Positions 3,835 to 16,233 of a stretch of 21,993 bases of DNA are shown here, in pieces (the first letter of the stretch is position 1; each line of letters opens with the position of its first letter). Origin of the DNA: Clostridia bacterium (GTDB lineage Bacteria > Bacillota > Clostridia > Oscillospirales > Acutalibacteraceae); the NCBI GenBank assembly GCA_017429345.1, contig JAFRPB010000153.1, positions 1-21,993 of the forward strand, in the 5' to 3' direction. Position numbers and translations under genes: made by a program. The notes under the pieces were generated by a model. It was given only the letters and a program-made list of their open reading frames with translations, did no database searches and was not told the origin of the DNA.

Positions 3835-4875
3835 TTATTCCGCGAGAAAATCAAAAGAACGCGCGCCGTGCACGCGGTGGCGGCCGTCGAATTCGTCGAC
3901 GGTCAGCGCGTCCTCCGCGCCGAAAAGGCGGTAGACCCGTCTTGCCCGTTCGTGCGCGTCGCGCGCGCCTTCGATCGGGAACAGCGGGTCGCGCGTCCCG
4001 GACTCGATCAGGAGCCTCCTCGGCGCGACCGCGGCGGCGAGATCGCCGATCTCGCCGATGCGCAGGATACCGGGGATATAATTGTCCGGGCAGTGCCAAC
4101 GCGCAAGAATGCTCTCGCGGAAGGTACAGGCGTAGCCGCTGACGACCGCGCGGGCGAAGCGTTCGTCCGCCGCCGCGGCGTAAAGCGCGGCAAGCCCGCC
4201 GCCGGAAATGCCCATCACGCCGAGCCGTCCGGGGTCGGTCCCGGGCAGGGACAAAAGAAAGTCCGCGCATGCGATCGCCTGAAACACCCGCACCCCGGCG
4301 GTGTTGAGTCCGTAGATCAATAGGTGATGCGACACCGTGTCGCAGGAGCTCGCGTAAAACGGCTTGCGCAGGTCTTTTGCAAGGCGCGCCTGACCGAACG
4401 CGACCGGCTCCGGCGCGGCGACGATACAGCCGCGCTTCACAAGCTCAAGCGCGAAATGCCGCTGATAATCGTCAAGATACGGCAGACGTTTCGGGCGGTC
4501 GTTTTTCGTCACGCCGATGATCTGCCGCACGCCGTAGCCGTGTCCGCAGAGGGCGACGACGCCCGGCGCGGGGGCGGAGAGCTTCCGCGGCGTCAGCAGA
4601 TAGACCGCGGCCGTCAGCCCCGGCAGCAGCGCGTGCGCGTATTTCTGTATCGTATAGTCTTCCGCGCAGATCGGTTCGCCGACCGGTACGGGTGAAGCGT
4701 TCGTTCTCATATTTTCAAGCACGGGCAGCGCGAGGACTTCGCGCAAGGTTTGCCTGACTTCTTCCGCCGCCGCTTCCGCGGATGCTTTATCACAGACGGA
4801 AGCGAACGGCTCCCCGCGCAGCGTATCGTAAAGCCCGTTCAGAAAGCCGTCCGGGCAGTAATCCTTCCGGGTCAT
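3835..4875 (-). CDS. Alpha/beta-hydrolase fold esterase, probable carbohydrate esterase (dienelactone-hydrolase/acetyl-esterase-like), 346 aa
   Basis: Nucleophile elbow GISGGG (G-x-S-x-G), HGYG oxyanion-like motif and a C-terminal acid/His region. Its start ATG overlaps the GH3 stop (ATGA), implying co-translation with the glycosidase. Confidence 0.6.
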   Translation of the reverse strand: MTRKDYCPDGFLNGLYDTLRGEPFASVCDKASAEAAAEEVRQTLREVLALPVLENMRTNASPVPVGEPICAEDYTIQKYAHALLPGLTAAVYLLTPRKLSAPAPGVVALCGHGYGVRQIIGVTKNDRPKRLPYLDDYQRHFALELVKRGCIVAAPEPVAFGQARLAKDLRKPFYASSCDTVSHHLLIYGLNTAGVRVFQAIACADFLLSLPGTDPGRLGVMGISGGGLAALYAAAADERFARAVVSGYACTFRESILARWHCPDNYIPGILRIGEIGDLAAAVAPRRLLIESGTRDPLFPIEGARDAHERARRVYRLFGAEDALTVDEFDGRHRVHGARSFDFLAE

Positions 4876-6956
4876 CGTTCCGTCTCCGCAAACCGCAGCG
4901 TTCCGGCGGCAAGAAAACTCCGCCCGTCGTTCGTGACGCTGAAGGAATACGCTTCGTCCGGGCGCATCCGTTTTTCTTCGTGGTCGTAGAATGCAAGATC
5001 CTCCGCGCTGACGCAGAGCTCTACGCGTTTCTCTTCGCCCGCTTTGAGCGGGACGCGGGCAAAGCCCTTAAGCAGCTTTATGGGACGGTCGGCGTCCGTC
5101 CGTTCGGACGAGGCGTAGAGCTGCACGACCGCGTCGCCGTCCCTCTCTCCGGTGTTTTTCACTGTAAGACTGACGCGCGCGCCCGTCTCCGTCTTTTCCG
5201 CCGAAGCGTCCGACAGCGAGAATTCGGTATATGAAAGCCCGAAACCGAAGGGGAACTGCACATTCTTTTTCGTTTTGTCAAACAGCGTATAACCGTGATA
5301 ATAGCCGTATCCGATGCTCTTTTTCTCGCTGCCGATGTGCAGGAACGGGGGGTAGTCGTCGGGATCTTCCGCGACCGTGAACGGCAGCCGCCCGCAGGGA
5401 TTCGCGTCGCCGCTGAGGATATCCGCGAGCGCGTTCCCGCCCTCAAGACCGCTGTAGAACGACATGAGAATGCAGTCGGCGAGATCCGACCAATCCTTTA
5501 TTACGTACGCGCTGCCGCCCATGATATCGACGATCAGGGGTTTGCCCGTCTCTTTCAGCGCGCGGATCAGCGCTTCGTCCTCCGCGGGGATACGCAGATC
5601 GGCGCGGTCACCGCCGCTGCCCTTCGGCTTGCTCTTCACGTTGCCGAGGTTGACGAGGAATTCGCCCTCCTGCAGCCAGTCGCTGCCGACGAGGATCACG
5701 ATATAATCGCTGTCTTGCGCCGCTGTCGCCGCCTTGAACGGGTCGCAGCCGTTGTAACAGGTCACGCTGTCCCCGCCGAAGCGGTTGCGGATCCCCTGAT
5801 ACGCCGTGACGGTATAGGGACTGTAGACCTGGCTTGAGCCGTGGTCGCCCACGTTCTTTTTATCGGCGTATCTGCCGACGACGGCGATCTTCGCGCCCGC
5901 GGGCAGCGGCAGCACGCCGTTTTTATTTTGTAATAAGACCGTGCCCTTGACGGCGGCTTCCCGCGCGAGGGCGATATGCTCCGGCGAGAGGATCGCCTCT
6001 TTCGGCACGTCCTTCTGCTTCGGCAGGGTGACGATCAGGGCTTTGAGCACCCGCGTGACCGCCGTGTTGATCTGCCGTTCGGTGATCCTGCCGCGTCTGA
6101 GCGCCGCGCCGAGCAGGGCGTAGCGGAAGATATAGGGCATCTCCACGTCGAGCCCCGCTTTGAGCGAACGCGCGCCGTCGTAGATGCCGAAGAAGAAGTC
6201 GGAGAGCGCGAAGCCCTCGAAGCCCCATTCGTTTCTGAGGATATCGGTCAGCAGGCGGCGGTTCTCGCAGCAGTAAGTCCCGTTGACTTTGTTGTAAGCG
6301 CCCATGATCGACATGGCGCCCGCGTCGATGCACTTTTTGAAATGCGGCAGATATACGTCGTAAAGCGTGCGGTCGTCGCAGCGCGCGTCGACGCTGAAGC
6401 GCAGATCCTCGATCGAATTGAGCGCGTAATGCTTCGGGCAGGCGATGATCCCGTTCTCCTGCATGGCGCGGGTCTGTACCTCTCCCATTCTGCCCAGCAG
6501 AAACGGATCCTCGCCGTAGGTCTCCTGCGCGCGTCCCCACATCGGGTTGCGCAGCAGATTGATACAGATGCCCGCGAACAGGTTCGCGCCGCCCGCCGCG
6601 GCTTCGCGCGCGAACGCCTGCGCGATCCGGGATTCGAGATCCGTATCAAAGCTCGCGCCGCGCATCATCGGCATCGGAAAACAGGTCCCGTGCCGCATCA
6701 CGATCCCGCGCGGTCCGTCGGTGAATTTCACCGGCGGCACGCCCAGGCGACGGCATCCGCCCGCGGCGTACGCCTCGCCGTTATAGTATCTTCCCTTCGT
6801 CAGAAAGGTCTTCGCCGTCGTGCCGAGCGCGTGCCCGCGCAGCATGTGAAGACGCTCGTGCAGCGTCATCTCGCGGCAAAGCGCCGCGGCGGCTTCGTTC
6901 AGCGTTTTTCTGTCGGGGTGTTCCTCATAGATCCTTACGGCGTCCTGAAAATTCAT
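4872..6956 (-). CDS. Glycoside hydrolase family 3 beta-glycosidase (BglX-like), ~694 aa
   Basis: GH3 N-terminal (beta/alpha)8 domain with KHYALNS and nucleophile motif GFEGFALSDF, an alpha/beta sandwich domain, and a C-terminal FnIII-like domain. Start placed at MNFQDAV (6956), where GGAAAGGAG lies 9 nt upstream. The longer ORF-track start at 7157 lacks an RBS and adds an implausible N-terminus. Confidence 0.85.
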   Translation of the reverse strand: MNFQDAVRIYEEHPDRKTLNEAAAALCREMTLHERLHMLRGHALGTTAKTFLTKGRYYNGEAYAAGGCRRLGVPPVKFTDGPRGIVMRHGTCFPMPMMRGASFDTDLESRIAQAFAREAAAGGANLFAGICINLLRNPMWGRAQETYGEDPFLLGRMGEVQTRAMQENGIIACPKHYALNSIEDLRFSVDARCDDRTLYDVYLPHFKKCIDAGAMSIMGAYNKVNGTYCCENRRLLTDILRNEWGFEGFALSDFFFGIYDGARSLKAGLDVEMPYIFRYALLGAALRRGRITERQINTAVTRVLKALIVTLPKQKDVPKEAILSPEHIALAREAAVKGTVLLQNKNGVLPLPAGAKIAVVGRYADKKNVGDHGSSQVYSPYTVTAYQGIRNRFGGDSVTCYNGCDPFKAATAAQDSDYIVILVGSDWLQEGEFLVNLGNVKSKPKGSGGDRADLRIPAEDEALIRALKETGKPLIVDIMGGSAYVIKDWSDLADCILMSFYSGLEGGNALADILSGDANPCGRLPFTVAEDPDDYPPFLHIGSEKKSIGYGYYHGYTLFDKTKKNVQFPFGFGLSYTEFSLSDASAEKTETGARVSLTVKNTGERDGDAVVQLYASSERTDADRPIKLLKGFARVPLKAGEEKRVELCVSAEDLAFYDHEEKRMRPDEAYSFSVTNDGRSFLAAGTLRFAETER

Positions 6957-9270: not shown

Positions 9271-9286
9271 CGATAAATCAGAATTT
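9271..9286 (+). repeat. Copy 2 of the CGATAAATCAGAATTT motif. Single half-site immediately 5' of the RBS of the first WYL-like gene.
   Basis: Exact 16-mer. GAAAGGAG RBS begins 1 nt after the motif, ATG at 9300. Confidence 0.6.
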
Positions 9287-9299
9287 GAAAGGAGTCTCC

Positions 9300-10520
9300 A
9301 TGCCCTACCAAGAGCTGATCAAAAATTTTTCCCGGGTACGGGCGTACCTGCGCCAGTTTTACGTTTACGGCTTCCGCAGCCGGAGCGAATTCGACGAAAA
9401 AAGCGCCCGTTCCTATGACGATGAGCGCCGCCGGGTCGAAAGCTGGCTGAGGGAGTACGTGTCCGCCCGCCGCACGCCGGAGGGAAAGAATATCTATATC
9501 TCCGTTGACAGCCGCCGCAGGAGCCGTGATCCTCTTTACCGGGTGTGGAAAACGAAGAGCTTCACCGACGGCGATATCACCTTGCACTTTCTGATCTTTG
9601 ACGTTCTTTATACGCCAACGGCGGCGCTGACTGTAACCGGGATCCTTTTGGGGATCGATGAGCGGCTTTCCGCATTTCCTTCGGCGAAGACCTTCGACGA
9701 GTCCACCCTGCGCAAAAAGCTGGAGGAGTACGTCCGGGAGGGACTGATCGTAAAAGAGAAAAAAGGCAGAGCCGTGTTTTACCGGCGCGCGCAGGGAACG
9801 CCGCTGCCCGAGGCGGACGCGCTGGCGTTTTTCTCCGAAGCTGCGCCCTGCGGCGTGATCGGCTCTTTCCTTGAGGATAAGACCGATGAGCGTCCGGAGC
9901 ATTTTTTATTCAAGCATCATTATATCACCCAGACGGCGGACAGCGAGATCCTTTGCCGCGTCTTCGAGGCGATCTCCGACCGGCGGGAGCTGATCTCCGT
10001 TTCCCGACACCGGGAATCGCTCGCGCGCGTCCTGCCGCTGCGGGTCTATATCAGCGTGCAGGGCGGCAGACAGTATCTGGCGGCTTACGACTTCGATATG
10101 AAACGCGTCGTTTTTCAGCGAATAGACCTGATCGAGTCCGTCGCTGCGGGGCCGGTTTGCGGGGAGTTTGAAACGTACCGGAGAAAACTGGACGGGCTTG
10201 CGCCGCATATCTGGGGCGTAAGTCTCTCCGGCAGAGCGCTCGAGCACGTCGATTTTACGATCCGTTATGAAGACGACGAGCCCCATATTCCCCTGCGCCT
10301 CGAGCGGGAAAAACGCTGCGGAACGGTGGAGCGGCTGAATGCGAATGAAAGCCGCTTTTCCGCCGGGCTGTACGACGCGGGGGAGCTGATTCCATGGATG
10401 CGCACATTTATCGGCAGGATTACGGAGTATCACTTCTCAAGTCCGAAGCGGGAAGAGCGGTTCCGGGAGGATCTGGAACGGATGTATGCACAGTACGGGA
10501 TCGGAGGCGACGAAGAATGA
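9300..10520 (+). CDS. WYL/WCX-like putative ligand-sensing transcriptional regulator, paralog 1 (406 aa)
   Basis: Start at MPYQELIK (RBS AGGAG 7 nt upstream); the longer ORF-track start has no RBS. Central wHTH-like segment (TFDESTLRKKLEEYVREGLIVKEKKGRAVFY). WYL-like strand motif KRVVFQRIDLIESV. C-terminal WCX-like tail ELIPWMRTFIGRITEY. Stop overlaps the next start (ATGA). Family assignment rests on motif recognition, not a search. Confidence 0.5.
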   Translation: MPYQELIKNFSRVRAYLRQFYVYGFRSRSEFDEKSARSYDDERRRVESWLREYVSARRTPEGKNIYISVDSRRRSRDPLYRVWKTKSFTDGDITLHFLIFDVLYTPTAALTVTGILLGIDERLSAFPSAKTFDESTLRKKLEEYVREGLIVKEKKGRAVFYRRAQGTPLPEADALAFFSEAAPCGVIGSFLEDKTDERPEHFLFKHHYITQTADSEILCRVFEAISDRRELISVSRHRESLARVLPLRVYISVQGGRQYLAAYDFDMKRVVFQRIDLIESVAAGPVCGEFETYRRKLDGLAPHIWGVSLSGRALEHVDFTIRYEDDEPHIPLRLEREKRCGTVERLNANESRFSAGLYDAGELIPWMRTFIGRITEYHFSSPKREERFREDLERMYAQYGIGGDEE

Positions 10521-11431
10521 CCTTTTTCAGCGAGCTTTACGGCGCTTATTACAACGCTGTCGCGAAGATCCTTGCCGCCGCCGTGCAAAGCCCCGTGACG
10601 AAGGAGGATATCCGCCGCATCGTGCGGGAGAACGCCTTCGCCGAAAGCGGGATTGAGATCGAATCGGCGATCTTCGCGCGATGGCAGCTGCTTGACGAGC
10701 GGGGCGGAACGCCGCTTCGGCATGTGCCCACGACACCCCTGACGCATCTGCAGAAGCGTTGGCTCAAGGCGGTCTCTCTTGACCCGCGTCTTGCGCTATT
10801 TGACGCGCCTTTTCCGGAGCTCAAGGGTGTGGAGCCGTTGTTTCAACCGGAGGATATCTGTGTGTTCGACCGTTTCACGGACGGCGACCCCTATGGGGAC
10901 GAAACCTATATTCGCATATTCCGCATTATGATGAGCGCGGTGCGGGAGCGGACGCCGCTTTACGTCGAGATGCTTGCCCCGAGAACAGGTGCGCGGAAAA
11001 TGATTCTGCTGCCCCTGAAGCTGGAATATTCTGAAAAGGACGATAAATTCCGTCTGCTTGCGGCGGACGGCAGGGGAGAGGTTACATTGAATCTGGCGCG
11101 GGTCACGCTGTGCCGTCCCTATGACGGTGCGCCGGTGCATTTTGCGAACCCGGCGGATTTTGCCGGCAATCGGGAAGAACGCAACTTTGTGCTTGAACTG
11201 ACGGAAGAGCGCAACACTCTTGAGCGGGTGATGCTGCATTTCGCCCATTTCAGAAAGGAAGCCCGGCGGGCGGAGAACGGCAGATATCTTGTAAGAGTCT
11301 TTTACGAGCGTCCGGACGAGACGGAGCTGGTGATCCGCGTGCTCTCATTCGGCCCCACCGTGACCATCCGCGAACCGGACCGGTTCGCCGGACTGGTGAG
11401 AGAACGGCTTTTGAAACAGTATAAATTCTGA
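10517..11431 (+). CDS. WYL/WCX-like putative regulator, paralog 2 (304 aa), translationally coupled to paralog 1 (PafB/PafC-like pair)
   Basis: C-terminus LVIRVLSFGPTVTIREPDRFAGLVRERL closely matches the conserved WCX tail of WYL regulators (...[VI]LSFGP-V-VLEP-ELRE...). WYL-like segment LPLKLEYSEKDDKFRLLAADG...LNLARVTLCR. GGAGG 10 nt upstream. Stop TGA lies inside motif copy 3. Confidence 0.5.
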   Translation: MTFFSELYGAYYNAVAKILAAAVQSPVTKEDIRRIVRENAFAESGIEIESAIFARWQLLDERGGTPLRHVPTTPLTHLQKRWLKAVSLDPRLALFDAPFPELKGVEPLFQPEDICVFDRFTDGDPYGDETYIRIFRIMMSAVRERTPLYVEMLAPRTGARKMILLPLKLEYSEKDDKFRLLAADGRGEVTLNLARVTLCRPYDGAPVHFANPADFAGNREERNFVLELTEERNTLERVMLHFAHFRKEARRAENGRYLVRVFYERPDETELVIRVLSFGPTVTIREPDRFAGLVRERLLKQYKF

Positions 11432-11486
11432 TTTATCGTTCTGCCGTGATACCATGTGCGCTTGACTCCGCGACAAATCAGAATTT
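11423..11486. repeat. Inverted pair of the motif (AAATTCTGATTTATCG ... CGACAAATCAGAATTT) around a 32-nt spacer. The left arm overlaps the WYL paralog-2 stop codon.
   Basis: 11423-11438 is the exact reverse complement of the 16-mer. 11471-11486 is a 15/16 copy (T to C at position 4) in direct orientation. Confidence 0.6.
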
Positions 11487-11491
11487 AACTT

Positions 11492-11527
11492 CGCATCTTT
11501 TTTTCCGTGAAAAAGGTGCGTTTTTTT
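11492..11527 (+). terminator. Rho-independent terminator after the WYL gene pair: stem cgcatcttttt / aaaaaggtgcg (one G-U), 7-nt loop, then TTTTTTT.
   Basis: Inverted repeat 11492-11502 / 11510-11520 followed by a T7 run at 11521-11527. Confidence 0.5.
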
Positions 11528-11535
11528 GTTATACT
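11527..11535 (+). promoter_or_regulatory. Extended -10 element TGtTATACT immediately after the terminator. Candidate promoter for the long leader/SPFH transcript.
   Basis: TG at -15/-14 followed by TATACT. Weak -35 (cgtgaa). The downstream ~430 nt carry no credible ORF before the SPFH start. Confidence 0.3.
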
Positions 11536-11962
11536 CTTCCTGCAGGATCGCCAGAGCGGGCGCTTCGCGGGAAGCCGCGGCGCTGCGGTGCACAGGATGA
11601 TATCCTTTTTATGTATGCCGGCGATGCTGCGGCGCGTGATAAGCGCATCGTGCAAGGCCGCACATTATTGCGGGTTCGACTCCCGCCGCGAGCAAATCGT
11701 GACCGATGGTTGGTGTTTATTGAGGAACTGCATTTTATGCGTCAGTTGCACAGAAAAAAGAAACGGCGTTCCGGCGAATCGATGCGGAAAATCTTCTCCC
11801 GCGTTTTCGCAGCGCGGACGGAGCCCTGCCTTTCGGCGGATACCGCTTTGCAAAACGGAAGACCGAATTATCCGTCTTTCGCCGGTCGAAGCTCAAGCCG
11901 GGAGCCGCCCCGTCGGCGCGGAACGCCGCGACGCGATCAACCTTTTAGGAGGAATATATATT

Positions 11963-13072
11963 ATGAAAAAAAGTATGATCAAAAAGACCGTCGTTCACGA
12001 GAACGAAAGAGGCCTGCTGTTCAAAAACGGCAGGTTCGTCCGCAGGCTCCTGCCGGGCAGATACTACGCCGTCGGCGACAGCGAGATCGAAACGCTGCCC
12101 GTGTCCGCGCCGCTGCGATCGGCGTTCTGTGAGACGCAGACGCTTCTGCGCGACCCGCAGATCGCTTCGGAGACCGCCCGCGTGGACGTTCGCGACAGAC
12201 AGAGGGCGCTGCACTATGCGGATGGCAGGTTCAAAGAGCTGCTTCCCGTCGGTACACACGTATTCTGGACCGCCGCCGGCGCACACGAATTCCGCGTGCT
12301 GGACGCCTCCGTTCCCGATCTGCCGGAGGATTTTCCCCGCGACATTCCGGCTGACATTCTCGGCAGTGACGTCTGCACGTTTGTGATCCATGCCGAAGAG
12401 GTAGGACTGCTGTTCGTCAACGGCAGGTTCGACCGTCTGTTGGAAGCCGGCGTCCACGCGTTTTGGGATCTGCCTGAGTTCCGGGTCTCCGTACGCTGCA
12501 GCGATACTCAGCTGCAGCAGATGAATATCTCCTCGCAGGAGCTGCTGACCGCAGACCGGGTCACGATCCGCGTCAATTTTGTGGTCGGCTGGCGCGTCAC
12601 CGACCACGTCCGTGCGGCGTTGGAGCTGGACAATCAGACAGAACTGCTTTACACCGCCGCGCAGCTGGTGCTGCGGGAGGTCGTCGGCAAATACCGCCTT
12701 GACGAGCTTCTGGAACATAAAGAGGCCCTCTCCGGCGAGGCGCTGGAGCTGCTGCGCAAAAAAGCGGAGTCCCTCTTCGCCGAGGTGACCGACGCGGGCG
12801 TAAAGGATATCATTCTGCCCGGCGAGGTGCGGGATATCATGAACACTGTCCTGGTGGCGGAAAAGCGCGCGCAGGCCAACGTCATTACCCGCCGTGAAGA
12901 GGTCGCTTCCACCCGTTCGCTGCTCAACACGGCGAAAATGATGGAAGAGAATCCCACGCTTTATAAGCTCAAGGAGCTGGAATATGCGGAGCGCATCTGC
13001 GAGAACGTGGGAAATATCAACCTCAACGGCGGGGACCTGCTCGGCGGGCTACTGGCGGTGTTGGGAAGGTAA
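11963..13072 (+). CDS. Cytoplasmic SPFH/band-7 (stomatin-prohibitin-flotillin-HflKC) domain protein with a triplicated N-terminal motif (369 aa)
   Basis: AGGAGG RBS 10 nt upstream of ATG 11963; the 5' extension of the ORF track is Arg/Cys-rich junk. SPFH core (RVNFVVGWRVTDHVRAALELDN...LREVVGKYRLDELLEHKEAL...VKDIILPGEV...AEKRAQANVITRREE), then a coiled-coil tail. Three N-terminal repeats of G-LLF-NGRF---LL-G-H-FW. No N-terminal TM helix. Confidence 0.65.
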   Translation: MKKSMIKKTVVHENERGLLFKNGRFVRRLLPGRYYAVGDSEIETLPVSAPLRSAFCETQTLLRDPQIASETARVDVRDRQRALHYADGRFKELLPVGTHVFWTAAGAHEFRVLDASVPDLPEDFPRDIPADILGSDVCTFVIHAEEVGLLFVNGRFDRLLEAGVHAFWDLPEFRVSVRCSDTQLQQMNISSQELLTADRVTIRVNFVVGWRVTDHVRAALELDNQTELLYTAAQLVLREVVGKYRLDELLEHKEALSGEALELLRKKAESLFAEVTDAGVKDIILPGEVRDIMNTVLVAEKRAQANVITRREEVASTRSLLNTAKMMEENPTLYKLKELEYAERICENVGNINLNGGDLLGGLLAVLGR

Positions 13073-13107
13073 ATTCTGATTTATCGCGGAGCGATAAATC
13101 AGAATTT
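13071..13107. repeat. Perfect 37-bp palindrome built from two inverted motif copies, AAATTCTGATTTATCGC-GGA-GCGATAAATCAGAATTT, starting inside the SPFH stop codon.
   Basis: Read directly; both 17-nt arms are exact reverse complements with a 3-nt spacer. Stop TAA at 13070-13072. Confidence 0.7.
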
Positions 13108-13256: not shown

Positions 13257-13272
13257 CGATAAATCAGAATTT
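13257..13272 (+). repeat. Copy 5 of the CGATAAATCAGAATTT motif. Single half-site immediately 5' of the RBS of the hypothetical gene, embedded in the local palindrome TTTATCGATAAA.
   Basis: Exact 16-mer. GGAAGGAG RBS starts 1 nt after, ATG at 13286. Same motif-RBS-ATG layout as at 9271. Confidence 0.6.
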
Positions 13273-13285
13273 GGAAGGAGAAGCC

Positions 13286-13840
13286 ATGAAACATACTGTC
13301 GACCGCGGAGAGCTTTGGGACGCATGTAATTATTCCTTTCAATATGCTGATAAGTTTCCCACACGATATTATAATATCAACGACGAACGCATCGAAGCGC
13401 TTGAGGATGTTCTCGTCGCGCTGAATATTCCACAGACCCGATTTCAGACTTATTATTATGATTACGATTATATCCCCATTCCCGTGACGCCGCTGGTGCC
13501 CGCGCTGAAAGCCTACGTCGAAACGGTGAACGATAAAAACATCCGCCGTGCGCTGCGCGACGTGCCGGATGACAGATACGAATGCGCTTTTAACCGTATC
13601 TGTTGGGATGACCGGGAATTCCGTCACGGCTGGAATGAGTTTTCCGCGGATATCGTAAACGGGGTCTGTGAGCGGTGGTGCGCGGAATACAATGTGACGC
13701 CGATCCGGGATCCCAGATGCGCATGGACCGGGGAAAAAGACAGGGAGTTCAATGCCGCTTCCGCCCGCAGAATGCAGAAAGAATATGAAGCGTCGAAAGG
13801 GCGGTTCCGAAGATATCGGAAAGAAAAGAGCAAATATTGA
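13286..13840 (+). CDS. Hypothetical Cys/Trp-rich protein with a basic C-terminal tail (184 aa), no recognisable family
   Basis: Good RBS (AGGAG, 5-nt spacer). Codon usage consistent with neighbours. Conserved-looking Cys pairs (CAFNRICW, VCERWCAEY, PRCAWTG) and a KGRFRRYRKEKSKY tail. Directly upstream of the rtcB remnant with an 24-nt gap. Confidence 0.45.
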   Translation: MKHTVDRGELWDACNYSFQYADKFPTRYYNINDERIEALEDVLVALNIPQTRFQTYYYDYDYIPIPVTPLVPALKAYVETVNDKNIRRALRDVPDDRYECAFNRICWDDREFRHGWNEFSADIVNGVCERWCAEYNVTPIRDPRCAWTGEKDREFNAASARRMQKEYEASKGRFRRYRKEKSKY

Positions 13841-13864
13841 ATTTTTAAAGGAAGTGAACCGGAA

Positions 13865-14192
13865 TGATTGCCGTTTACGGAAAATACAATACAGCCCTTT
13901 GCTACTGCTCCGTTTCGGAGGAGGCTGCGGCGGAGCAGATCAGAACGATTTGCGACAGGGCGAGTTCGCGGCTTCGTGTATCCGCATCATGCCCGACGTG
14001 CACGCCGGCAAAGGCTGCACCATCGGCACAACGATGACGCTGACCGACAGGGTCGTGCCCGCGATGGTCGGCGTCGATATCGGCTGCGGAATGCTCACGG
14101 TCAAGCTGAACGCGCGGGAGCTTGACTTTGCCCAGATGATCATCTGCCGCTGCGGTTCCGTAACAGGGGGCGTGCAGTTTATGGAGAAATAA
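13865..14192 (+). pseudogene. rtcB: RtcB RNA-ligase remnant: N-terminal ~110 codons only, with a -1 frameshift near 13950, then truncation
   Basis: Frame-2 start MIAVYGKYNTALCYCSVSEEAAAEQIRTICD continues in frame 0 as (Q)GEFAASCIRIMPDVHAGKGCTIGTTMTLTDRVVPAMVGVDIGCGM. This matches the N-terminus of bacterial RtcB (MPDVHxGxG...VGVDIGCGM). Re-reading the shared c at the junction restores ...ICDQGEFAASCIRIM. The ORF ends ~35 codons after GCGM, whereas intact RtcB is ~400-480 aa. Followed by a terminator and a low-GC gene on the opposite strand. Confidence 0.6.
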
Positions 14193-14224
14193 TATTGGCT
14201 CACCGATTTTTTTTTACAACTCAA

Positions 14225-14260
14225 AAGCCGAGAATCACCAAAGTCAGTGGTTCTCGGCTT
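14225..14260. terminator. Rho-independent terminator (10-bp stem aagccgagaa / ttctcggctt) shared by the convergent rtcB remnant and the membrane-protein gene.
   Basis: Perfect stem around a 16-nt loop. The minus-strand RNA continues UUUUGAG. The plus strand has T9 just before the stem. Confidence 0.6.
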
Positions 14261-14300
14261 CTTTGACGCTGTTTATTTACATCCTTTTATTTACTTTGAT

Positions 14301-15950
14301 TTAAGGAGTTGTCATAATCTGAACTAAAATAACATCTTTGTTTTCAATAATACGAAATCGGCTTGTCGGATCGTTTGCAACAACCATTTTTCTTGCTTCT
14401 GCCTTTTGCTCCGCGGAACAGGATTGCAGCGAATATCCCAACCTCTGCATGACCCGCAGGTAATTATCATTATAAGCCCATCCTATATAAGAAGTGTACG
14501 CAGTAAACGAATCGGCAATTTGATCTGCAAGTTCTTCCGAGGATCGGAATACATATCCATAACCCCGCACTTTATCATAGAATCTTTTCGGCAGAACATT
14601 ATCAAACAACAAAGCTGAATATTTTCTGTACTGTGTCATTATAAGATTCGGCTCGTTTTTGGAATGCCGCAAGCTTTCGGGAAGTTGATAGTTTTCCGCC
14701 GAAAACACAACCGGCTTGCTTTGCGTATCATATTCGAGCAGCTCTTTTCCTATATCCTGCAGCAGAGAGATCTCATAAGTGTGTCTTTCAAAATTATCAA
14801 CTGCGTAATTATTGATATCTTTCGTTTGATTTAAAACGATTACCACCAGCACACATGAAATAACAATGTGCAGTTTTTTGTTTTGGCGGCAATACAGAAA
14901 CAACAGCATAATGACAAACGCAACAAAAACGGAAAGCGTCTGCATCTGTCTGAATTCAACCATACGCCCAATGAGCAGCGGAAGCGAAACCACAGACAGA
15001 CACAATATGATAAAAATGCATGCGGGGAACAAGGATCGTTTTTTCACGGAAAGCAAAACAGCCCCTGTCGTTCCGATAACGACGGTAACAAGAAACATCA
15101 GCAAAAACGGAAGAGAAATGCTGCCGATAACAAATGAGGTGAACATCATAACGATAAACCGAACCAGATTTTTGATCGGAGCTCCGGACAGCCAATATAT
15201 TTTAGTATTCGGCTCATACCAAAATTTCGTTGTACCGCAAATGACAAGATTGACCAGCTTTGATATGATAAGATCTACAATAACAGCTGCAAGCAGCAGG
15301 CCGACAGCCATCGCAGCAAGAACAAGATAATCCTTTATACCTGCTGTTGTTCGGTTATCATAATAAAAAAACAGCAAAAGAGACGCAAAAAAACCAACCA
15401 AATATACACTCGCAAAAGATTCGTACATATCTACGGCGGGAATCAACGCAAGCAAAGAAATAACTAACCGTTTTACAAGGTGTTTTTTGTCAGCAAATCC
15501 CAAATAGAGCTGGCAGAGTGAAACAGGAACCAGAACGTATGCCAAAACGATATTAAGAACCGGATACGTCAGCTGTGCGGTAATCACGGGATAGGATACA
15601 AAAACCGTACCAAACGCAATTTGCGCCGATTGGGGAATTTTATCTCCGGATACGACTGAAAACAATACGGACCACGCAACAGATGCACAAAAGAGAATAA
15701 TCGCCGTTAATGCAGTATGCCAGAACGGGGCAAAATTCATCCAATTTGTTAACAAATGAATCAAAGGCGTCGCCCATCTGCCGGCACCGACCAATATGGA
15801 TCCATTGTAATACTCCGGCATCAGCTGATCAATATGGATTGAGTAGTGACTTGCATAAAAGCCATAAGAGAGTATCAGCGTAATGACAACGGATATTATG
15901 TACCCCTTATTGCGGGACAAAAACGATAAAACAGAATTCGGTTGGTTCAT
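14301..15950 (-). CDS. Polytopic integral membrane protein (>=11 predicted TM helices plus ~170-aa C-terminal soluble domain), possible GT-C-fold glycosyltransferase-like. Low-GC, likely horizontally acquired.
   Basis: Long hydrophobic segments throughout (e.g. YIISVVITLILSYGFY, LTAIILFCASVAWSVLFSVV, LLLAAVIVDLIISKLVNLVI). GC ~42% versus ~60% around it. Start placed at MNQPNSV (15950), which has GGAG 6 nt upstream; the ORF-track start MEYYM (15962) has no RBS. Functional call is by architecture only. Confidence 0.55.
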   Translation of the reverse strand: MNQPNSVLSFLSRNKGYIISVVITLILSYGFYASHYSIHIDQLMPEYYNGSILVGAGRWATPLIHLLTNWMNFAPFWHTALTAIILFCASVAWSVLFSVVSGDKIPQSAQIAFGTVFVSYPVITAQLTYPVLNIVLAYVLVPVSLCQLYLGFADKKHLVKRLVISLLALIPAVDMYESFASVYLVGFFASLLLFFYYDNRTTAGIKDYLVLAAMAVGLLLAAVIVDLIISKLVNLVICGTTKFWYEPNTKIYWLSGAPIKNLVRFIVMMFTSFVIGSISLPFLLMFLVTVVIGTTGAVLLSVKKRSLFPACIFIILCLSVVSLPLLIGRMVEFRQMQTLSVFVAFVIMLLFLYCRQNKKLHIVISCVLVVIVLNQTKDINNYAVDNFERHTYEISLLQDIGKELLEYDTQSKPVVFSAENYQLPESLRHSKNEPNLIMTQYRKYSALLFDNVLPKRFYDKVRGYGYVFRSSEELADQIADSFTAYTSYIGWAYNDNYLRVMQRLGYSLQSCSAEQKAEARKMVVANDPTSRFRIIENKDVILVQIMTTP

Positions 15951-16187
15951 GTAATACTCCATGAATTATTATAATCAACAGCCCACACGAAAACGGGTGT
16001 TTCTTCTTTCAGCAGAGGGAGATCCGCGCCTCGTTCCCCATTTATAAATAACGGTGTCGGACGCTCATATTTTTTCATCGGGTACGGGCAGAGGTCGTCC
16101 GCCATATGGCGCAGCCGCATATCACACGCGAAACGTATATCATCCGCAGTAGGCGAATATCATTCGGCAACGCCGAATATCATTGCA

Positions 16188-16233
16188 AAATTCTGGTTTA
16201 TCGAGGCATGAATGCCTCGATAAACCAGAATTT
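16188..16233. repeat. 46-bp near-perfect palindrome made of two inverted variant motif copies, AAATTCTGGTTTATCGAGGCAT-GA-ATGCCTCGATAAACCAGAATTT, ending 3 nt from the ddh stop codon.
   Basis: Both 22-nt arms are exact reverse complements. The core differs from the other copies by one base (ACCAGAATTT vs ATCAGAATTT). On the minus-strand RNA the stem is followed by AAUUUUGC, so it may also terminate ddh. Confidence 0.65.

Follow-up and report, generated by a model that had tools for sequence, protein, structure and literature searches.

The plus-strand hairpin at positions 11670–11686 of contig JAFRPB010000153.1 (assembly GCA_017429345.1, a member of the Clostridia), analysed here as a single stretch of 21,993 nucleotides (nt) that is referred to below as the window, is very probably (approximately 85%) the T-arm of a circularly permuted tRNA mimic. 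This mimic would be the central one of three domains in a conserved, structured RNA, about 420 nt long, which constitutes the leader of an operon encoding a slipin (an SPFH/Band-7 protein) and RtcB. In dozens of Clostridia genomes the three domains recur upstream of the slipin gene with their sequence, order, strand and position preserved, and the RNA represents a variant form of the tRNA mimics found in RtcB operons, one for which Rfam has no entry. Its function is something we infer, and our confidence in the scaffold mechanism outlined below is much lower than our confidence in the identity.

The site under study, GCGGGTTCGACTCCCGCCGCGAGCA (11670–11694), occurs once in the window, on the plus strand within the intergenic region 11432–11962. 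An earlier interpretation of the same DNA, made from the letters alone (the sequence-only reading), had described it as the isolated 3' half of a tRNA, and the 5-base-pair T-stem and T-loop of that description were correct in sequence, position and strand: GCGGG and CCCGC form a perfect stem around UUCGACU, which fits the T-loop pattern. The following CGCGAGC-A, which had been taken for the 3' strand of an acceptor stem with its discriminator base, proved to be part of another structure. Positions C11687–A11691 pair with U11697–G11701 (C-G, G-U, C-G, G-C and A-U) around a GCAAA loop, and CGCGA is thus one half of a closed hairpin (CGCGA/GCAAA/UCGUG, 11687–11701) that mimics an acceptor stem and is paired in the same way in the local Rfam alignment to YrlA. 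A D-arm mimic, indicated by the alignments and by covariation (ACCG/AUGGU/UGGU, 11702–11714, with a conserved GG in the loop), lies directly downstream; the tRNA-like half is therefore present but not isolated, the sequence-only reading having looked for a D-arm upstream only. The resulting order of T-arm, loop-closed acceptor stem and D-arm is that of a circularly permuted tRNA. The earlier view that this is not a functional tRNA gene was confirmed, since ARAGORN called no tRNA or transfer-messenger RNA (tmRNA) genes in the window and the Rfam scan of the window gave no family at its gathering score. Relaxed Rfam scans returned T-arm-sized matches only (to YrlA, tmRNA and a tymovirus tRNA-like element), and a genuine tRNA or tmRNA gene was rejected on these grounds; matches to PyrR, ncr952 and a small nucleolar RNA in the same scans were regarded as noise.

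Taken by itself, a T-arm of this kind is not above chance and is unremarkable in shuffled sequence, so the reality of the feature had to be judged by comparison of genomes; it is the extended module and its recurrence in other genomes that give it significance. Eighty loci (one genome per species) were collected in a search with a slipin alignment, and all 80 were from Clostridia, including Oscillospiraceae, Acutalibacteraceae, Lachnospiraceae, Christensenellaceae and others, with slipins approximately 50% identical to the window protein. A perfect T-arm motif was located within 900 nt upstream of the slipin start in 64 of these loci, mostly at 250–430 nt; with few exceptions, a hairpin of differing sequence and then GCCAGUGGWUUGG came after it. 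The T-stem, closed acceptor stem and D-stem were tested in an ordinary MAFFT alignment that had not been fitted to any model (alignment A2; 54 distinct sequences), in which 92.1% of cells were paired compared with 25–47% when the partners were slid by 1–3 columns. Changes on both sides of a pair were found in 11 of the 15 module pairs, and none of 500 column shuffles matched the observed values. All five T-stem pairs were paired in 100% of the cells, three of them with changes on both sides; the acceptor-mimic helix showed double-sided changes in six of seven equivalent pairs over the 54 sequences (the window copy being among the shortest); and the D-stem covaried as GCCA/UGGU, GCCG/CGGU, GCCU/AGGU and UCCU/GGGA. 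The T-loop UUCGA was invariant in this alignment, as was one of the two D-loop G residues, the other being at least 90% conserved. The T-loop UUCGA and the D-loop GG are the nucleotides that form the elbow of tRNA.

Covariance models located the module specifically. Model R1, with the window in its seed, gave one strong match (at least 42 bits) in 63 of the 80 loci and in the window, all on the plus strand and upstream of slipin, and several of the positive loci were outside the seed. Model R3, built from 47 loci without the window and run with filters off against 44 kb of sequence, scored the window at 31.6 bits at 11667–11742 (E approximately 2e-13), the next best match reaching 9.1 bits; E-values from these covariance models are rough. 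A sequence-only profile (nhmmer) that was also built without the window found a single module match at 11667–11697 (E 4.6e-6), and such profiles for all three RNA domains gave single, colinear matches. A short hairpin with a tetraloop cap is found 2–4 nt beyond the D-arm in most loci (for example GUCC-UUCG-GGAC, GCCG-GAAA-CGGC and GCUC-UUCG-GAGC), and from its position and form it looks like an analogue of the anticodon stem, in which case the module would be a tRNA mimic with four arms, opened at the variable loop. The window has an imperfect hairpin at this place after the D-arm (AACUG-CAU..AUG-CGU-CAGUU, 11726–11747, plus strand), which may be a degenerate counterpart, although this assignment is uncertain.

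The mimic is preceded by a 5' domain of 89 nt, a three-way junction of helices P1, P2 and P3 (11541–11631 in the window, plus strand) that was defined by a covariance model (R2), covariation and duplex folding. P1 joins the extreme 5' end to the segment preceding the variable hairpins (11540–52 with 11620–32 in the window), P2 is a bulged hairpin, and P3 is near-invariant across loci, with the form GGUGCAC-GA-GGAUAUUCC-AAA-GUGU-AU-GCC. Model R2, built from 16 loci of equal length without the window, matched 74 of the 80 loci once each, always on the plus strand and upstream of slipin, and matched the window over its full length at 11541–11631 (23.0 bits, E approximately 0.002). Of 29 pairs in the 5' domain, 26 had double-sided changes, and 90.7% of cells were paired against at most 63% in slid controls, figures to be read in the light of an alignment that was fitted to the model and so favours the structure. 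P1 and P3 were recovered independently of R2, by duplex folding and RNAalifold; RNAalifold on the first MAFFT alignment missed P1, where gaps had been misplaced at the 3' end, and duplex folding together with the equal-length model recovered it. The P2/P3 motif had no matches when viral contigs were scanned for its pattern. Between the 5' domain and the T-arm, in the position of a variable arm, minimum-free-energy folds of the window place two short hairpins (11632–11663, plus strand; 11632–46 and 11650–63). The sequence of this region is unconserved, and other loci have one hairpin or a second T-arm-like hairpin here. The latter (GGGGUUCAACUCCCC) lies 30–45 nt upstream of the main T-arm in many loci (L005, L009, L019, L022, L030, L039, L043, L047, L049 and others), preceded by a stem and a hairpin, which suggests tandem, partial tRNA-like modules in the variable region.

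The third, 3' domain (element 2; 11764–11928, plus strand, approximately 165 nt) was defined by RNAalifold and by a profile built without the window, the sole match of which in the window was at 11775–11859 (E 1.4e-4). It is closed by a stem of CGGCGUUCC (11764–72) and GGAACGCCG (11920–28), which the single-sequence fold also recovers and which has its counterpart in locus L008 as GUUAUCAUUC and GAAUGGUAAC. RNAalifold on 36 sequences predicted 32 pairs in the domain, 27 of them with compensatory changes. Conserved blocks across the loci include GGAUACCG, CUUUCCGC, CACUCAAAUUUUCAGCCGC and CUCAA..CAGCCGC, and those of the window read GCCCUGCC..GGAUACCG (11838–45)..CUUUCGC..GCUCAAGCCGGGAGCCGCC. 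The 3' domain had no Rfam match.

The RNA stands in a conserved gene neighbourhood. Same-strand homologs of two regulators, a WYL-domain protein and its WCX-domain partner, were found upstream in 55 and 61 of the 80 loci, respectively, and an intact RtcB downstream of slipin in 60, many contigs being too short to show all three genes. The same RNA domains were also found in two additional loci, where the Band-7 proteins are longer; one of these has no WYL genes. In L037 (797–3484), Macro-domain and ADP-ribosylglycohydrolase genes stand upstream in place of WYL/WCX, and an RlaP nucleotidyltransferase gene follows RtcB in L085 (8168–8935) and L086 (7743–8510). In about 14 loci (L006, L018, L026, L048, L056, L060, L071, L078, L080 and others) the RNA is found some 900 nt before slipin, with the 3' domain in its usual place behind it, and the additional 600 nt or so apparently hold another open reading frame (ORF). 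Searches of 20 loci with ARAGORN, and with Rfam at gathering score, returned nothing for the RNA except in L031, where it was scored as a tRNA. In that locus a tRNA-Asn(GUU)-like cloverleaf of standard topology (4681–4752; 40 bits against the Rfam tRNA model, with an ARAGORN call) replaces the permuted module directly after the 5' domain; ARAGORN scans of 40 loci gave no other standard cloverleaf at this place. A call by ARAGORN only was obtained in L070 (4636–4715).

A shared promoter region links the RNA to this gene set. The DNA motif TTCGCAGCTTTTTTTCCGTG, with the consensus GAGTTCGCAGCTTTTTTTCCGTGA or, including a 5' GAG, (GAG)TTCGCAGCTTTTTTTCCGTGA, was found in 73 of the 80 loci, 72 of which hold a single copy, and its place is always immediately before the RNA; the window has one copy, TTCGCATCTTTTTTTCCGTG (11490–11509, plus strand). 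It is about as conserved as the RNA itself and overlaps the -35 region of the RNA promoter. Gene linkage, together with what is known of PafBC-type WYL regulators, points to the motif as the probable operator of the WYL/WCX pair. The promoter-like site of the window consists of GTGAAA, a 17-nt spacer and TATACT with an upstream TG, that is, an extended -10 box (11507–11535, plus strand). Such a box lies approximately 17–20 nt downstream of the DNA motif, as TGGTAAAAT in most loci and as TGtTATACT in the window, and P1 of the RNA starts 5–8 nt after it; L008 has GTGAAA-17-TAAAAT with TG, 6 nt before the 5' domain. A candidate intrinsic terminator at 11492–11520 was rejected, as it coincides with the motif conserved in 73 loci and lies upstream of the RNA. 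Scanning of the plus strand from the RNA to slipin, in the window and in two typical loci, revealed no canonical terminator. The simplest reading is that one regulated promoter drives the RNA, slipin and rtcB as a single transcript; the Salmonella rsr-yrlBA-rtcBA operon is likewise a single transcript (PMC7790460).

Among described RNAs the module is most readily compared with YrlA (Rfam RF02553), a tRNA mimic with the order V region, T-arm, closed acceptor stem and D-arm (PMC4201824; bioRxiv 10.1101/312249) that is encoded beside Ro60 and often RtcB and is modified by TruB and DusA (Chen et al., RNA 2014, PMC4201824). The sequence-only reading had offered a Y-RNA/YrlA-like RNA as its alternative, and this part of it survived in substance: the window RNA has the same order of T-arm, loop-closed acceptor stem and D-arm, T-loop and D-loop nucleotides are conserved in both, the RNA shares an operon with RtcB and would be co-transcribed with the protein genes, and YrlA was the only meaningful local similarity in Rfam. 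That match, from the relaxed scan, scored 17.9 bits (E 0.59) over model positions 31–62 of 114 and covers the T-arm and the hairpin after it; five typical loci gave no YrlA match at E up to 1. Membership of the YrlA family itself was rejected, on the score below the gathering threshold, the lack of a conserved Ro60 motif and of a Ro60 gene, and a different closing helix. In YrlA the 5' and 3' ends pair and close the mimic via an anticodon-like stem leading to the Ro60 site, whereas in the window RNA the helix preceding the V region, P1, is formed with the extreme 5' end and surrounds a conserved domain distinct from the mimic; furthermore, the D-arm of the slipin-linked family is followed by a capped hairpin of its own. 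The protein partners also differ (Ro60 versus, as we propose, slipin), as do the regulators (RtcR versus WYL/WCX). The earlier statement that no Ro60 gene is present held for the window, where no TROVE domain was found among the ORFs; the search did not extend to the wider flanks of the 80 loci.

Among published concepts, the Band-7-associated tRNA comes closest, a tRNA-like RNA beside a Band-7/SPFH gene and RtcB that was predicted by Burroughs and Aravind (2016), according to the account given in a later preprint (bioRxiv 10.1101/312249). In that preprint, this RNA is described as experimentally unvalidated (Wang et al., bioRxiv 10.1101/312249) and as a proposed functional analogue of YrlA with Ro60, and YrlA-type RNAs are said to adjoin Band-7 genes occasionally (bioRxiv 10.1101/312249). 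The window RNA agrees with the concept in being non-coding, tRNA-like and located beside a Band-7/SPFH gene and RtcB. It differs in form: the Band-7 RNA is characterised there as 'strongly resembling an authentic tRNA' (bioRxiv 10.1101/312249), whereas the window and most of our loci carry a permuted mimic without a tRNA call by ARAGORN or Rfam. The L031 cloverleaf may be the authentic-tRNA-like form of the same RNA. We place the RNA within this concept, compared through the later paper's description only; no further paper mentioning the Band-7 RNA was found in the literature searched, and Rfam has no family for it.

Permuted tRNA genes, as in Cyanidioschyzon merolae and others, and two-piece permuted tmRNAs likewise encode the 3' half before the 5' half; in permuted pre-tRNAs a linker closes the acceptor stem and maturation uses an RtcB-type ligase. 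The mimic is similar in that the T-arm and acceptor 3' strand precede the acceptor 5' strand and D-arm and are joined to them by a linker. It is unlike them in that no anticodon loop, 7-base-pair acceptor stem, CCA context or bulge-helix-bulge was identified in it and there is no sign of its processing into a functional tRNA. The Salmonella rsr-yrlBA-rtcBA operon with RtcR (Hughes et al., Cell Rep 2020, PMC7790460) corresponds in its components, having a dedicated ligand-sensing regulator, one or more tRNA-like RNAs, an RNA-binding ring or cage protein and RtcB. In contrast, RtcR is a sigma-54 activator with a CARF domain, while the slipin operon has WYL/WCX and a sigma-70-type promoter, and Ro60 stands where slipin does in ours, which is also without RtcA.

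Three other explanations were weighed against this identity and the proposed role. The most serious is that the 420-nt structure, mimic included, is a cis-acting regulatory leader that senses a signal and controls read-through into, or translation of, slipin and rtcB, and is no RNA partner of a protein. Cleavage by a tRNA-targeting nuclease, RNA fragments, RtcB or slipin are candidate signals. A leader of this type would accord with its position directly before slipin in most loci, with the single promoter and the lack of a canonical terminator before the slipin ribosome-binding site (AGGAGG, 11947–52), and with the end of the 3' domain only 18 nt before that site. In the loci with a distant RNA, the 3' domain follows the RNA and, in L026, precedes an apparent ribosome-binding site and start codon of another ORF. 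In many loci the stretch that separates the mimic from the 3' domain also holds a conserved hairpin with a U-rich tract behind it (AACG..CGUUUUU), which could be a weak, regulated terminator. On the other side, no alternative pairing that would sequester the ribosome-binding site was identified, and the closest characterised relatives, YrlA and YrlB of Salmonella, are released from the operon transcript by processing and function in complexes with protein (PMC7790460, PMC4201824). We regard cis-regulation as a real possibility that is still the less likely way for the RNA to act; it is compatible with the identity proposed here, from which it differs in how the RNA acts, and does not exclude a scaffold role.

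That the hairpin is a chance T-arm-like structure, or a decayed tRNA pseudogene with no function, is very unlikely. Several observations also weigh against a permuted mimic in a functional RNA. Perfect Watson-Crick T-arms occurred at least once in 17% of 200 dinucleotide-preserving shuffles of the window, rising to 72% when G-U pairs were allowed, and a second motif of this type is present in the window itself, on the minus strand near 6226. Single-sequence folding was unexceptional: folds recovered several helices, and the energies of long stretches (z -1.1 and -1.2) were no better than those of shuffles, with 11632–11768 at z = +0.75, so that by z-score these folds are uninformative. The window RNA is the lowest-scoring member of its family, with a short acceptor hairpin and one C-A mismatch in P3 (11587–11619, GGUGCAC..GGAU..AUCC..AUGUAUGCC), and neither the folds nor the R3 alignment showed a clean equivalent of the tetraloop-capped hairpin after the D-arm. 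With regard to YrlA, the score falls far short of the gathering score of 69 bits, and the Ro60-binding motif GNCGAAN0-1G (PMC4201824) was found in nine of 66 family RNAs and not in the 5' part of the window RNA. The rtcB gene of the window is a pseudogene, and because of this and of the low score of the RNA, the system may be decaying in this genome, or the local copy losing function. Against chance and decay, models built without the window locate all three domains in the right order, and the permuted arm order is conserved with covariation and is not a product of decay; partial loss of function in the window genome itself is possible.

The weakest explanation, favoured by the sequence-only reading, is that the site is an attachment-site scar, a tRNA or tmRNA 3' fragment duplicated by integrase-mediated insertion and marking a mobile-element boundary between the WYL operon and the SPFH gene, and we give it practically no credence: the T-arm and the bases after it do resemble a tRNA 3' half, and a low-GC insertion and palindromic repeats nearby speak for past rearrangement of the region, but 63 of 80 other genomes keep the module at the same position before the slipin gene, each of its three helices shows compensatory changes, its supposed acceptor strand is half of a closed hairpin with a D-arm next to it, the 25-mer has no second copy at up to three mismatches and the ORFs include no integrase, recombinase or other mobile-element gene (searches that covered the 22-kb window and, beyond it, contig L081), and WYL/WCX, RNA, slipin and RtcB on the two sides of the supposed boundary form one conserved cassette.

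For the permuted tRNA mimic as a trans-acting partner RNA, the following mechanism may be envisaged. The WYL/WCX pair would control the promoter via the conserved motif, by activation or by release, in analogy with PafBC-type WYL regulators. The transcript would then fold, with T-loop and D-loop forming a tRNA-like elbow, and proteins could recognise the mimic as tRNA-like. It might stay on the mRNA or be processed out, as YrlA is from the Salmonella rsr-yrlBA-rtcBA transcript, and could serve the slipin oligomer as a partner in the way that Y RNA serves Ro60, acting as a tRNA-shaped scaffold, decoy or gate that brings in or controls the RtcB-dependent repair of tRNA-like substrates after their cleavage. 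A more speculative proposal, which we consider doubtful, is that the leader is a single, hitherto undescribed three-domain RNA machine with a built-in damage sensor or RtcB substrate and with the slipin cage as its protein partner. Under this equally conjectural scheme a tRNA-targeting toxin might, for example, cleave the mimic, or RtcB might re-ligate or circularise it, and expression of the repair operon would be switched as a result. If true, the sensor RNA and slipin cage would correspond to the Y RNA system but work without Ro60.

RtcB operons of bacteria serve as a model of RNA repair and raise the question of which substrates RtcB acts on and why RNAs shaped like tRNAs accompany it. To our knowledge, experimental study has so far been limited to the Ro60/YrlA version. 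The loci described here, from gut and rumen Clostridia, represent a second version that lacks Ro60 and has very strong comparative support; its components are an RNA with three covarying domains, a promoter motif of its own, a WYL/WCX pair and a probably soluble slipin. The loci provide a ready-made candidate Rfam family and a defined DNA site at which to ask what WYL-type regulators sense, and the cultured carrier Robinsoniella peoriensis, represented among them by strain CCUG 48729 at locus L050, makes the prediction of a Band-7 protein with a cognate tRNA-like RNA testable. For the annotation of the window, a false mobile-element boundary is removed and the operon is recognised as degenerate through loss of rtcB.

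In the window, the RNA is preceded on the plus strand by a WYL-domain regulator gene (9300–10520, 406 amino acids, called on the identical contigs L081 and L082), to which the L062 WYL protein (PF13280) is 49% identical at 9306–10502 (tblastn), and by the gene for its WCX-domain partner (10517–11431, 304 amino acids), which has a weak match to Pfam WCX (PF25583) and 45% identity to the WCX protein of L062. The slipin gene follows (11963–13072, plus strand, 369 amino acids; Pfam Band_7, E 6.6e-30), its product being identical to protein P0001. The slipin N-terminus (11964–12390) has no obvious membrane helix, and about 140 residues before the Pfam SPFH domain repeat that domain's 'ERGLLFKNGRF' start, which suggests from the sequence a soluble, internally duplicated SPFH protein. 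Downstream, the rtcB remnant (13864–14138, plus strand, the fragment region extending to 14192) retains residues 1–92 of approximately 402 with a frameshift and is cut off by a low-GC segment (approximately 40–47%; 14200–16000) that carries a GtrII glucosyltransferase gene on the opposite strand. The truncation is real, since it is identical in three independent metagenome assemblies.

Between slipin and the rtcB remnant is an ORF (13271–13840, 184–189 amino acids) with repeats resembling repetitive extragenic palindromes (REP) on both flanks; it matched no Pfam family, none of the 80 related loci contains a homolog, and it probably represents an insertion. The remainder of the window holds ordinary chromosomal genes (EF-G, GlmS, diaminopimelate dehydrogenase and glycoside hydrolases). 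The 16-mer palindrome AAATTCTGATTTATCG was considered as an operator for the regulators and rejected, since its 10 copies (none expected) are spread over the window at the ends of unrelated genes. These lie at 180–195, 9271–9286, 11423–11486, 13071–13107, 13257–13272, 15924–15939 and 16188–16233, frequently paired in inverted orientation so as to form hairpins at the ends of genes, and look like a REP-like family of intergenic palindromes of this genome that is not specific to the operon.

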